Source of the DNA: Mobula hypostoma
Taxonomy: Eukaryota
Direction of reading: 5' to 3'
DNA: 64,000 nt
Assembly: GCF_963921235.1 (NCBI RefSeq)
Contig: NC_086097.1
Span: 152,956,001-153,020,000 of the forward strand
Shown: piece by piece, positions 40,401-64,000 of the stretch
Layout: each line of letters begins with the position of its first letter
How positions within the stretch are numbered: the first letter of the stretch is position 1
Notes under the pieces: generated by a model
Databases searched by the model: none
Seen by the model: only the letters and a program-made list of their open reading frames with translations
Told to the model about the DNA's origin: nothing
Translations under genes and position numbers: made by a program

Positions 40401-41494
40401 TTTTTCCTTGTTAGAAGAGAATGCATCAATACTCCTTTAGGGATTTATGAACATCTTGTCCTATTTTGATACTTTTATTAAAATATCCATGAGAAATAAG
40501 GAGGAGGCACTGAAAATACAGCTAAAGTTGTACCAACTTGATACTTTACAGAGGGAAAGATCTTCTGCCCTCATCCCGATGGTTACTGGCAGGATTTGCC
40601 TAGATATCCTTCCAGAGCTGCTATTAGCCGAACTTGGCACCGAGGCACAGGAAACAGTGCTGCTGCATCAGTTTCAGTGACCCGGCTTTGATCTTGCCCT
40701 CTGTTGCTGCATGTGGGGAAGATTCCGTGTTCTGTCTATTACTGCATAGATGTCGCCCAGGTGACCCGACTTCCTCTCACATCCAAAAGAAATTCAGGCC
40801 AGCAAGTTGGTTGGTCACGGCAAATAACCCTCAGTGTCGCTGGCCGACAGGAGCATTTGGCTGGCATTAATAAACATGAGAGATAGAATAAGTTGGGGAG
40901 AAGTAAGGGAGCAGGGTGGGGACTGGCATTGATGAGATTGTTCTTTGATGACATTTCTCTGAATTTTCACCATGATGGAATTAAAAACGTGCAAAACATC
41001 TGACTGGAATGGGTCAAGGCCCATGGAAGTAGACAAACCAAATGGCTATTGTTGTGTTGGAAGGAATGGAGGCCATTATTTTGTGAGACCATTTTTATAG
41101 TGACCACTTTGTTAATTGTTTTTATGAACGATGGTCCTTGCTCAGAGATGACTGGATCAGAGCAATTGGAAATGAAAATAGGAAGAGCTGTCTGGCTCTG
41201 AGCTGAAGTAACTCAATCCCAGTGTCTGAGCTGAACTGGGTTAAATGAGCTGTCTCATGAAAAAGCAAAGGAATGACATCAGAGGCAAGTCTATAAATCG
41301 TCCCTCATGTTCCCTGAGAAGTGCTGGGAGCTGGGCTCCCAGTGAAAGACTAGACAGGGAGTTAGGCTGAAACAAACAAGCACTATCCAGGGGTTGAGGG
41401 ACAACAGCTATGCAGAAGCATAAGATACACTCTATTATTGTTTATAAAGGTAGATATTGTTGATTAATTAATTATTTTTTTAACTATTAATACT

Positions 41495-41667
41495 GGCGTC
41501 AAAATGGATGTTGTGACACATCTAGTGTGGTGGTCCCGTGGGTAGTGGATGCCGCTCTCACTTTCAGCCAGTACATAGCCTCTCGAACAGCAGGCCTCGT
41601 GTAGTGCCTCCTCGCTGGTGACACACAGAAAATGAACTTCTTTTGGACTCAGGCTGAACTACAGAGG
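41495..41667 (+). ncRNA. HDV-like self-cleaving ribozyme motif (probably decayed)
   Basis: P2 CCTC(G)TGTAGT 41595-41605 pairs with ACTACAGAGG 41658-41667; P3 GCC/GGT encloses L3 TCCTCGCT; P4 hairpin 41633-41651; J4/2 GG-C-TGA (C41654); P1 and P1.1 are imperfect. Confidence 0.65.
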
Positions 41668-42053
41668 ACGGGGGAGGAGGTCTGACCCCCGCTGCGTATG
41701 TAGCATGCAGGCCCACTGGTGTATGGGCATGCCCTGGTGCTCGTGTGGGTAAATAGTGTCACCACCTCGTCGGCAGTCTCATGAGAGACGAAGGTTACGA
41801 GAGTAAACCCAAACAGCAAATCCGGAGTGGAGCCCCTAACGTGGCTGGAAGCCATTGAACCTCCTTCCAAGAGCTCCTGCAGCCAAGTTGGTGTCAAACA
41901 TATTGCTTCATAAGCTCTTCGTTGGACTACACTGGTGAGGCTGAGAGGGGGATCTTGACGAATGGGCATCTCAGGATCTTCATACCTTCCGCCCAGGGCT
42001 TGTGATGATAAACATCATCACCTATTGTCCTTTGAGACAGATGGATGCCAACC
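41495..42053 (+). mobile_element. RTE-derived non-autonomous element (~560 bp) inside a Rex1 3' UTR
   Basis: gagtaaaccc...aaatccggagtggagcccctaa resembles RTE 5' UTRs; 3' end gtcctttgagacagatggatgccaacc; flanks 41445-41490 and 42054-42265 are Rex1 3' UTR. Confidence 0.65.
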
Positions 42054-42454
42054 ATTTGTTATTATTTTTTTCTTTTTGTTTTTGCACATTTTGTTGTTTT
42101 CTGCACACTGGTTGAATGCTTGAGTTGGTGTGGTCTTGCATCGATTCTATTGATTTTATTATTCTACTCTGGACTTATTGAGCATGCCCACAAGAAAATG
42201 AATCTCAGGGTTGTATGTAATGACATATACGGTATGTAGTTTAATAATGAATATACTTTGAACTTCACTAAGATGTCAGTGAGGAAATTTTTTCAGGGTT
42301 TAATGTGTAGGTATGCCTCTATCCTATCCAAGTTTGCCATCTGGGTTGACCATACAGGTATATTTCTGTAATGTATTAGAACAGAAGTTTAACACAACTA
42401 ATTGCCTTTCTGGCCTATTTCAGATCACCATTAAGAGTCAGTCCTATAGTTCAA

Positions 42455-61699: not shown

Positions 61700-64000
61700 A
61701 ATGTGCATTCACTGAAGAGCAAAACTGAGGACCTGAAGGCAAGATTGCTGAATCAAAGGGAAATGAGAGATTGTTGTGTTCAATGTTTAACCAAGAATGA
61801 CTTACTCCTAGCATGCCAAATACGGTGATCAGACCCGAAGGCTTCTTGATTCACAGGACTTGTGATACTGCATGATGCTGTCACCAAGCAATAAACAGTC
61901 CATCTCGACACATTTCGAATCATAGTCAGGGACTTCAACCAGGCTTGTTTGCAGAAATCCCTGCCCAATTACCATCAATACCAGAGGTCACAACGCACTA
62001 CATAAGGAATGCTTACCGATCCATGCCCAAATCACATTTTGCAAAAATCTGATCACTTGGCCTTTGTTCTCCTACCTGCATACAGACAGAGCCTAAAAAA
62101 ACAATGTTCCAGAGATTTGGTGGCTGTGTGAGGCAGAGGAATGGCTGCAGGATTGATTTGAGTCCTTGGACTGAGCCATGTTTGAGAACTCATCAGTACG
62201 TCTGAATTAATATATCACACTTGTCATGGACTTCATAAAAACAGTTGTAAATGAGTATGTCCCACAAAATTATTCAGAGTCTTTCCCCAAACAGAAGCCC
62301 TGGATGAAAAACTGAGATCCACAAACTGCTGAGAGCCAGATCAGAGGCATTCAAATCTGGTGACCATGAGAGTTACAAGAGGTCTGGGTATGATCTCCAG
62401 AAAGCCATTCCAAAGCCAAAGTGGCAATTCTGGACTAAACTTGAACCAATGAAGGATACTCATCAGTTTTGGCAGGGCTTCAAAATTATCAGCTCTTCTA
62501 AAGTAAAATCAAGCGATGGTGGTGACAACAGTGTTATGCTTCCAGATGAGCTCACTATCTTCTATGCTCATTTTGATCAACATAATATTGAGGAATCATC
62601 ACAAACTCCCAATAATCCTATGATTTCAGTCTCTGAGCATCCTGCAGGAGGGTGAACCCACAAAAGTCCAGCCCAGACATGGTACCTGGCCAAATACTAA
62701 AAACCTGTGCTGATCAACTGGATCAATTTGAGTGTTTACTGAGATCTTTAACCTCTCAATTCAGCAGAATGAGGTACCTACCTGCTTCAAGCAGGCTTCA
62801 ATTATGCTGGTGCTTAGGAAGAGGATGATAACCTGTCTCAAACACTGTCGTCCGGTAGCACTGACATCTACACTGATGAAGTGGTTTGAGAGGCTGGTAA
62901 TGAAACATATCAGCTCCTGTCTGAGAAGTGACTTGGATCTGCTCCAATTCGCCTACCAGCACAACAGTTCCACAGCAGATACCATTTCATTGGCTCTTCA
63001 CTCAACCCTGGGTCATCTGGTCAGGAAAGATGCATACATTATGATGCTCTCTATCACTTCAGCATTTAATACTCTCGTCCCCTCAGAACTAATCAGTAAA
63101 CTTCAAGACCTTGACTTCAATATCTCCTTGTGCAAATGGATCCTCGATTTCCTCTCTTGCAGACCCCAGTCAGTTCAGATTGGCAATACCTCCTCCACAA
63201 TCTCCATCAGCACAGGTGCACCACAAGGCTACTCACATTACAGTTAGAACAGTGTGGCTAAACACAGCTCCAATGCCAGATTTAAGTTTGCTGATGACAC
63301 CACTGTCCTTAGCAGAATCAAAGGTGGTGATGTATCAGCATATAGGAGGGAAATTGAAAATCTGGCTGAGTGGTGTCACAACAACAACGTCTTACTCGAT
63401 GTCAGCAAGAGCAAGGAGCTCATTATTGACTTCAGGAGGAGGAAACTGGAGGTCCAAGAGCCAATCCTCATTGGGGGACCAAAGGCATAGAGGGTCAACA
63501 ACATTAAATTCTTCAGTGTTATTTCAGATGACCGGCCCTGGACCTTACACATGAAGAGAGCATGATAGTGCCTCTACTTGCTAAGGAGTTTGCAAAGATT
63601 CAGTATGACAGCTAAAAGTTTGACAAAATTCTATACATGTGGTGGAGAGTATATTGACTGTTTGTGTCATGATTTGCTACAGAAACACCAATGTCCTTGA
63701 ACAAAAGCTATAAAAAGTAGTGGATACTGCCCGGTCCATCACAGGTAAAGCTCTCTCCATCATTAAGCGTATCCACATTGTGTGCTGTTCCAGGAAAGCA
63801 GTATCCATCATCCAGGCCATGCTCTCTTCTTGCTGCTGCCATCAGGAAGGAGGTGCAGAAACCTTAGATATCACAACACCAGGTTCAGGAACAGTTATTA
63901 CTCTCCAACCATCAAGCTCCTGAACCAGAGTGAAAAACTTCATTCATCAAAACTGAACTGAATTCACAACCTAAAGTCTCATGTTCAAAGACTCTTTGGT
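61700..64000 (+). mobile_element. Rex1/Babar LINE (endonuclease + RT remnants), running off the window end
   Basis: gggacttcaaccagg (GDFN); FTEIFNLSI...CRPVALTSTLMKWFERLV...SAFNTLVP...GAPQG; RFKFADDTTV. Confidence 0.92.

Follow-up and report, generated by a model that had tools for sequence, protein, structure and literature searches.

A decayed end-to-end miniature of an RTE retrotransposon in Mobula hypostoma, headed by a predicted HDV-like ribozyme

The window analyzed here, a stretch of 64,000 nucleotides from Mobula hypostoma, carries on its forward strand a two-part, apparently RTE-derived retroposon (41495-42054) in which the 5' leader of a LINE is joined to its 3' tail through a short hairpin. 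The head of the element folds into a candidate ribozyme and is followed by the remaining RTE leader (41668-42001, common to the parent LINE), a palindrome that can form an 8-bp hairpin at the junction (42002-42021) and an RTE tail of about 30 nucleotides (42022-42054), which consists of a short stem-loop and an (ACC/AAC)-type end. The palindrome is specific to the form of the family found in the window, subfamily A; full-length LINEs can pair leader and tail at this place. A very high-copy repeat of another kind starts directly after the element (42059-42250); this repeat, or a site next to it, may have been the insertion target. No clean target site duplication (TSD) is left at the window copy.

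A genome search with 41490-42070 returned 2,996 first-look candidates, of which 40 were scored, at 79-83% identity, and 30 copies align to a 633-nucleotide majority sequence at 82-94%. A sequence-only reading of this DNA had described an ORF-less element of about 560 bp. The absence of an ORF holds, as ATG-started sense-strand frames reach 17 codons at most, but the intact element is about 630 bp long, and the window copy has lost 60 nucleotides at 41567/41568 and about 17 at 41745/41746. Its non-CpG divergence from the subfamily majority is 10%, versus a mean of 6.5% for 55 subfamily A copies. The A junction was found in 55 of 104 typed copies; the sharing of one junction by many copies, TSDs of 9-15 bp and a microsatellite-like tail are the marks of amplification as a unit. 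The TSD range given for RTE elements in the available text of PMC6007223 is 7-15 bp. Family-like contigs were also present in four contig runs, a kind of data that cannot reveal RNA ends or expression.

The fold at the head places P2, a 3-bp P3 and an L3 of 7-8 nucleotides in the order of a nested double pseudoknot, spanning about 170 bases in the window copy and about 230 in intact copies. The predicted cleavage site lies 5' of G41495, and the P1 5' strand (41495-41500) has the six-nucleotide form of subfamily A. It is followed by the J1/2 (P1.2) domain (41501-41594), which is 94 nucleotides long here and 154 in the family, and whose closing stem (41507-41513 with 41585-41591) retains five of seven pairs. 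The P2 5' strand (41595-41605) pairs with 41658-41667 over 10 bp with one bulge. P3 and L3 occupy 41606-41619: P3 pairs 41606-41608 with 41617-41619, starting with a G.U pair, and L3 (41609-41616) is identical to what we take to be the L3 of the genomic HDV ribozyme. The next segment (41620-41628) holds the P1 3' strand (41620-41626) and the P1.1 dinucleotide, AG at 41627-41628 where the family has GG. Within the last segment (41629-41667), which also contains J1.1/4 and the P2 3' strand, P4 extends over approximately 41633-41651 (the family equivalent is 41632-41652) and J4/2 presents the catalytic C at 41654. The positions first proposed for P2, P3, L3, P4 and the J4/2 C all agree with the sequence.

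We scanned both strands of the window with a core descriptor (P2 of at least 10 bp, P3, L3, P1.1 G and catalytic C), which matched twice on the forward strand (41606 and 63303) and not at all on the reverse strand. Twelve dinucleotide shuffles gave no match at a P2 of at least 10 bp and a mean of 0.25 at a P2 of at least 9 bp. The match at 63303 sits in degenerate RT-like coding sequence that belongs to another LINE (62900-64000) and is most likely due to chance. Taken alone for one copy, the descriptor is therefore suggestive and not decisive, and the question of the fold was settled on the family. The minimum free energy fold of 41495-41700 is unremarkable (z 0.54), a method that cannot model pseudoknots. 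Rfam searches of the window and five loci matched no ribozyme family at gathering or E-value thresholds, so that the proposed check against its HDV-like models came out negative, probably because J1/2 is so long.

At the family level, 93 distinct ribozyme cores were surveyed from 146 loci, which were chosen by similarity or pattern, so that the shares given here are not genome-wide rates. The last P1 base and the two bases after it read CGG in 31 cores, CAG in 22 and TGG in 20; 55 of 93 have GG as the P1.1 dinucleotide, and most of the others show CpG decay. By their sequence, CAG and TGG are the two CpG decay products of a presumed ancestral CGG, which bears out the suggestion that the AG of the window copy arose from GG in this way. 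The family can thus form P1.1 with its one or two C-G pairs; in the window copy, A41627 disrupts the pair equivalent to C22-G38. In J4/2, 83 of the 93 cores retain the catalytic C and 85 the conserved A, and both are also present in four related LINE leaders (L131, L135, L136 and L147). All 3' features are intact in just 14 of the 93, and the window copy is not among them. It also carries C41497, a P1 mismatch (C-A) that is private to it among the aligned copies, and has lost the first P4 pair. Given this mismatch, the broken P1.1, the G.U pair in P3, the lost P4 pair and the gutted J1/2, the window copy is probably inactive, and the ribozyme claim applies to source elements.

The strand that completes P1 was identified from the family. 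Copies of a sister form, subfamily B, and of the LINE, which were recovered with 3' patterns that take no account of the head, open with a strand of seven nucleotides that pairs perfectly with the P1 3' strand. In subfamily A this opening strand is missing its second base and is followed by one extra A, which leaves five contiguous pairs plus a G1-C pair across a bulged A, with a duplex energy of -6.2 versus -9.1 kcal/mol for the perfect seven-bp form. P1 thus starts at the cleavage-site G with seven of seven pairs in subfamily B and the LINE and with five plus one in subfamily A, and is disrupted further in the window copy. Exact 22-nucleotide heads, counted by eye among 100 listed of 132, comprise 80 of A type, 14 of seven-bp type and 6 others. 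When 104 copies were typed by junction and start, with 12 left unclassed, all 29 typable starts among the 55 A-junction copies were of A type (20 were ambiguous, 6 truncated), and the 37 B-junction or LINE copies included 14 of seven-bp type, 2 of A type, 7 ambiguous and 14 truncated. Across the family head, the element start is the best partner for the P1 3' strand (-7.9 to -9.1 kcal/mol); an internal candidate at family position 115 reached only -5.2 kcal/mol and was rejected.

From 116 loci we obtained 58 full-length copies, 31 with an exact start and 13 with a scorable TSD. The TSD ends no more than 2 nucleotides from G1 in 11 of these 13, as anticipated for copies whose 5' ends map to the first G of P1, and the base preceding G1 is T in 22 of the 31. 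Subfamily A copies begin at the same G as the other forms. Because P1 begins at the first base of the element and the TSDs end there, the predicted cleavage site coincides with the insertion boundary.

To these we added 80 related loci from metagenome contigs, of which 35 include upstream sequence. The full HDV descriptor is satisfied by three of these 35 leaders (L131, L135 and L147), which differ in sequence and have a 7-bp P1 and a J1/2 of 275, 175 and 157 nucleotides, respectively. The other 32 fail it, many being incomplete or having other heads; they include L136, which aligns at 78% and has an L3 one base shorter and a weak P1 (-1.1 kcal/mol). Relative to the seven-bp form, four pairs of the L135 P1 differ in both bases. 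In an alignment of six sequences chosen by us, in which both-side changes come solely from L135 and L136, 8 of the 21 pairs of P2, P3, P1.1 and P4 are changed on both sides, as are 4 of the 7 pairs of the J1/2 closing stem. In the core alignment 93.7% of cells are paired, as good a result as this was reached by none of 500 shuffles, and slid controls gave 26-47%. RNAalifold recovered the J1/2 stem and folded J1/2 into a multibranch domain; position 41525 and an A-box-like stretch both lie in its first hairpin. The proposed check of pairing and covariation thus yields compensatory changes in P1, P2, P3, P4 and the J1/2 stem, from few independent lineages. Together with the family P1, P1.1 and catalytic C, they support the double pseudoknot first read from the window, and the family evidence confirms the predicted HDV-like fold at the head of the element as genuine.

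The parent LINE was reached through tail and B-junction patterns, one B-pattern locus continuing into coding remnants; a pattern for a LINE running on directly after the leader anchor returned only four short-element variants. Family positions 2-582 (leader) and 600-628 (tail) are common to L087, L093 and L122-L125, parent copies of about 4 kb with APE (endonuclease) and RT remnants between leader and tail. Leader identity to the parent copies is approximately 80-88% (84-86% for L122-L124, 88% for L087). RVT_1 matches a parent remnant at E 1.5e-4 and a younger sister family at E 4e-33; Pfam searches of five L087 remnants gave nothing credible, and the ATR1 matches, in these remnants and in the search that included the sister family, fell below the cut-off. 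The sister LINE has an APE+RT frame of 834 amino acids, its relatives are single proteins of about 1,045 amino acids, and its best named protein match is from the sawfish Pristis pectinata, which points to a cartilaginous fish as the likely host; the cluster names of these relatives supplied no clade label. The leader at approximately 41776-41844 resembles Repbase RTE-12_AMi: in an ungapped comparison by eye, the family majority agrees at 62 of 69 positions with the sequence given in the supplement of PMC5786205. The single APE+RT ORF and this leader match, rather than an RT tree, support a decayed single-ORF LINE of the RTE clade as the probable parent. The description of the element as RTE-derived and non-autonomous is thus upheld: it retains the leader and tail of a LINE in the same genome, and the coding region is gone.

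Several other elements were observed during this survey. The younger RTE family (L088, L114-L121, L126 and L127) is about 90-92% identical between copies, and its lower leader is about 70% like that of the window family, with a different head. The first six nucleotides of that head can pair with a stretch about 150 nucleotides downstream. After this stretch come a short loop, then a J4/2-like motif that contains a C, and a P2-like helix, and an additional 6-bp hairpin separates P2 from P1; Rfam found nothing here. L127 is an internal-deletion derivative of this family. The LINE copy L087 is interrupted, within its RT remnant and on the reverse strand, by an insertion of about 500 bp whose ends are inverted and contain internal repeats, and which looks like a non-autonomous DNA transposon. 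A repeat with a tRNA-like head (Rfam tRNA weak, E 1.6) occurs in L044 (2808-2870), upstream in L056 and in the 3' flank of L087; in L056 this repeat is apparently followed by the lower RTE leader lacking the ribozyme head. Among 30 B-junction-pattern copies, 12 (L063, L065, L066, L068, L070, L071 and L075-L080) start at family positions 284-341 with unrelated DNA upstream. These starts fall just 3' of the ribozyme and the hairpin following it, and possibly mark a stop of reverse transcription at a strong structure. The short forms L057-L086 show several distinct deletion junctions within about 40 nucleotides of the leader helix strand described below, which suggests that they arose repeatedly and independently, although the patterns used select for this region.

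We consider it probable that the window element is a decayed end-to-end RTE miniature whose head folds as an HDV-type ribozyme, likely cutting the RNA of source elements at its first G. The element is built of two parts, its parent LINE lies in the same genome, P1 stands at the insertion boundary and the stems carry compensatory changes. The mechanism follows precedent from R2 SIDEs, NARTc/SIDER and RTE elements, as far as the available texts of PMC3414825, PMC4035085, PMC5786205 and PMC6765202 describe it. Pol II would transcribe a source copy together with the host DNA upstream of it, or transcription would begin at a promoter within the head. The structured J1/2 and long P2 would pinch P1 and P2 together and so aid the ribozyme, as drz-Agam-2-1 is accelerated by its long P2 and its short-linked, paired P1.2 in the portion of PMC4908430 consulted. 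Cleavage at G1, likely in source elements, would remove the upstream RNA and free the unit RNA, and by analogy we infer release from host read-through transcripts. The LINE endonuclease/RT would recognize the tail in trans, probably together with the junction helix, and target-primed reverse transcription would insert the RNA, yielding the 9-15 bp TSDs; inserted copies would then decay neutrally. According to the text available for PMC3414825 and PMC4035085, SIDE and NARTc/SIDER ribozymes self-cleave in vitro, and several elements with adequate folds are inactive in vitro (PMC4035085).

The principal competing account, which we regard as unlikely, accepts the fold as inherited from the LINE and holds that subfamily A cleaves inefficiently: a promoter inside the head would define its 5' end, or the fold would serve as 5' protection or as a stop for RT. 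The bulged 6-bp P1, present in 80 of the 100 listed exact 5' ends and in 29 of 29 typable A-junction copies, speaks for it, as does L1Tc/NARTc, where the same 77 nucleotides are promoter and ribozyme (PMC3383444, in the part consulted). P1 mismatches point both ways, with tolerated and disabling cases and some tied to loss of cleavage in the available text of PMC3774820. However, the same text reports a 6-bp P1 and one or two P1 mismatches in approximately a quarter of R2 ribozymes, the remainder of the core is identical in the A and B majorities, and A copies keep starting at the same G. The ribozyme-bearing head may contain an internal promoter all the same.

Transcription as a Pol III SINE of tRNA type, with an A box in the head and a dead ribozyme remnant in the body, is largely refuted and very improbable. 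The initial statement that Pol III boxes are lacking needs correction in one respect, as the family majority has an 11-nucleotide A-box match at positions 37-47, but it stands for the B box, which is absent from the majority. A Pol III head with A and B boxes (tRNA, 7SL or 5S) was not found, ARAGORN detected no tRNA in six loci, the full-length LINE starts with the same head, and the A-box-like stretch forms one side of a J1/2 hairpin and is not at that position in L136 and L135. Just as improbable is a shorter ribozyme with its P1 at 41525, inside the element, or a fold that is a chance match like the one at 63303. The sequence-only reading had offered both 41495 and 41525 for the P1 5' strand, and in the window copy alone 41524-41531 is indeed the best remaining partner (-6.3 versus -2.3 to -4.3 kcal/mol). 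Family pairing and TSD ends favor 41495, whereas 41525 lies within the covarying J1/2 hairpin, and cleavage there would remove the first 30 nucleotides, which full-length copies retain. Chance is excluded by the compensatory changes.

Sharing both termini with an autonomous LINE, with the coding region deleted and no ORF, the element is a SIDE, or bipartite non-autonomous LINE, a published category; it is non-autonomous as first described, but an internal-deletion LINE derivative rather than a new kind of SINE. Ribozyme-headed internal-deletion elements are already known from R2 SIDEs, NARTc/SIDER and bipartite RTE elements. RTESINE1/2, WALLSI3, MAR4_MD and Bov-A (Kojima 2018, PMC5786205) are bipartite, ORF-less, non-autonomous RTE LINEs that, like the window family, consist of RTE 5' and 3' ends and keep the true 5' end, and the available text of that paper already links bipartite RTE elements to 5' ribozymes. 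The window family differs from them in family and host, as far as the elements described there allow comparison outside Repbase, where it may already be named; described here are the fold of its predicted ribozyme, the J1/2 domain and the hairpin at its junction. The Drosophila R2 SIDEs (Eickbush and Eickbush 2012, PMC3414825) share the short form made by internal deletion, the HDV-like head, the large J1/2 and the compensatory changes. In the sections consulted, however, they belong to the R2 clade, are site-specific for 28S rDNA, low in copy and shown to self-cleave, whereas the window family is RTE, dispersed, TSD-flanked and represented by thousands of candidates, with a ribozyme predicted from sequence. 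Trypanosomatid NARTc, RIME and SIDER (Sanchez-Luque 2014, PMC4035085) are likewise dispersed and non-autonomous with a 5' HDV-like ribozyme, some of these active and some not, but they are of the Ingi/L1Tc clade with a compact 77-nucleotide ribozyme, in contrast to about 230 nucleotides and a multibranch J1/2 here, as far as that text extends. The drz-Agam-2 type (Webb 2016, PMC4908430, in part) has the same extended P2, paired P1.2, short linkers and a cleavage site at the first P1 base, and RTE 5' ribozymes were reported by Ruminski 2011, as cited in the passages used of PMC5786205 and PMC6765202. Compared with these sources, the predicted ribozyme of the window family is unrelated in sequence at the Rfam level and has a dominant subfamily with a bulged 6-bp P1.

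A tentative idea, which we hold to be somewhat doubtful, is that RTE RNA loops through a 6-10 bp helix between the leader end and the bases before the 3' tail, so that the protein reads leader, helix and tail as a unit. The pairing itself was confirmed in a test: both anchors, picked after the pairing had been seen, were present in 12 of 91 loci (11 distinct, L120 and L121 belonging to one family), where mean pairing was -14.4 kcal/mol for own, -11.0 for crossed and -5.6 for shuffled pairs, and 28 of 100,000 permutations equaled the own-pair score. L132 ranked last of 11 and L124, the decayed LINE of the window family itself, seventh. The leader strand is missing altogether in a few copies (L035, L041). 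Subfamily A has neither strand of the helix and carries at this spot the 8-bp palindromic hairpin, which may just as well have arisen when the (ATC)n tail of the sister forms folded back on itself; this subfamily is the most abundant form, despite its bulged 6-bp P1. A literature search covering few subscription papers, with Repbase outside its scope, found nothing on this family or on an RTE leader-tail helix.

The window family adds a vertebrate RTE example to the ribozyme-headed non-autonomous elements, and its thousands of copies, dated and decaying, offer material for assays of a large predicted HDV-like ribozyme and of a natural bulged-P1 variant. Gene-insertion platforms use RTE UTRs as templates, according to the available part of PMC13708176. 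Why RTE generates bipartite elements is posed as an open question by Kojima (PMC5786205, text consulted in part), and the leader-tail helix is a testable answer that, if true, would account for the two-ended miniatures that RTE gives rise to. Subfamily A would be the natural test, having lost both helix strands, gained a new hairpin at the same spot and undergone the greatest expansion.
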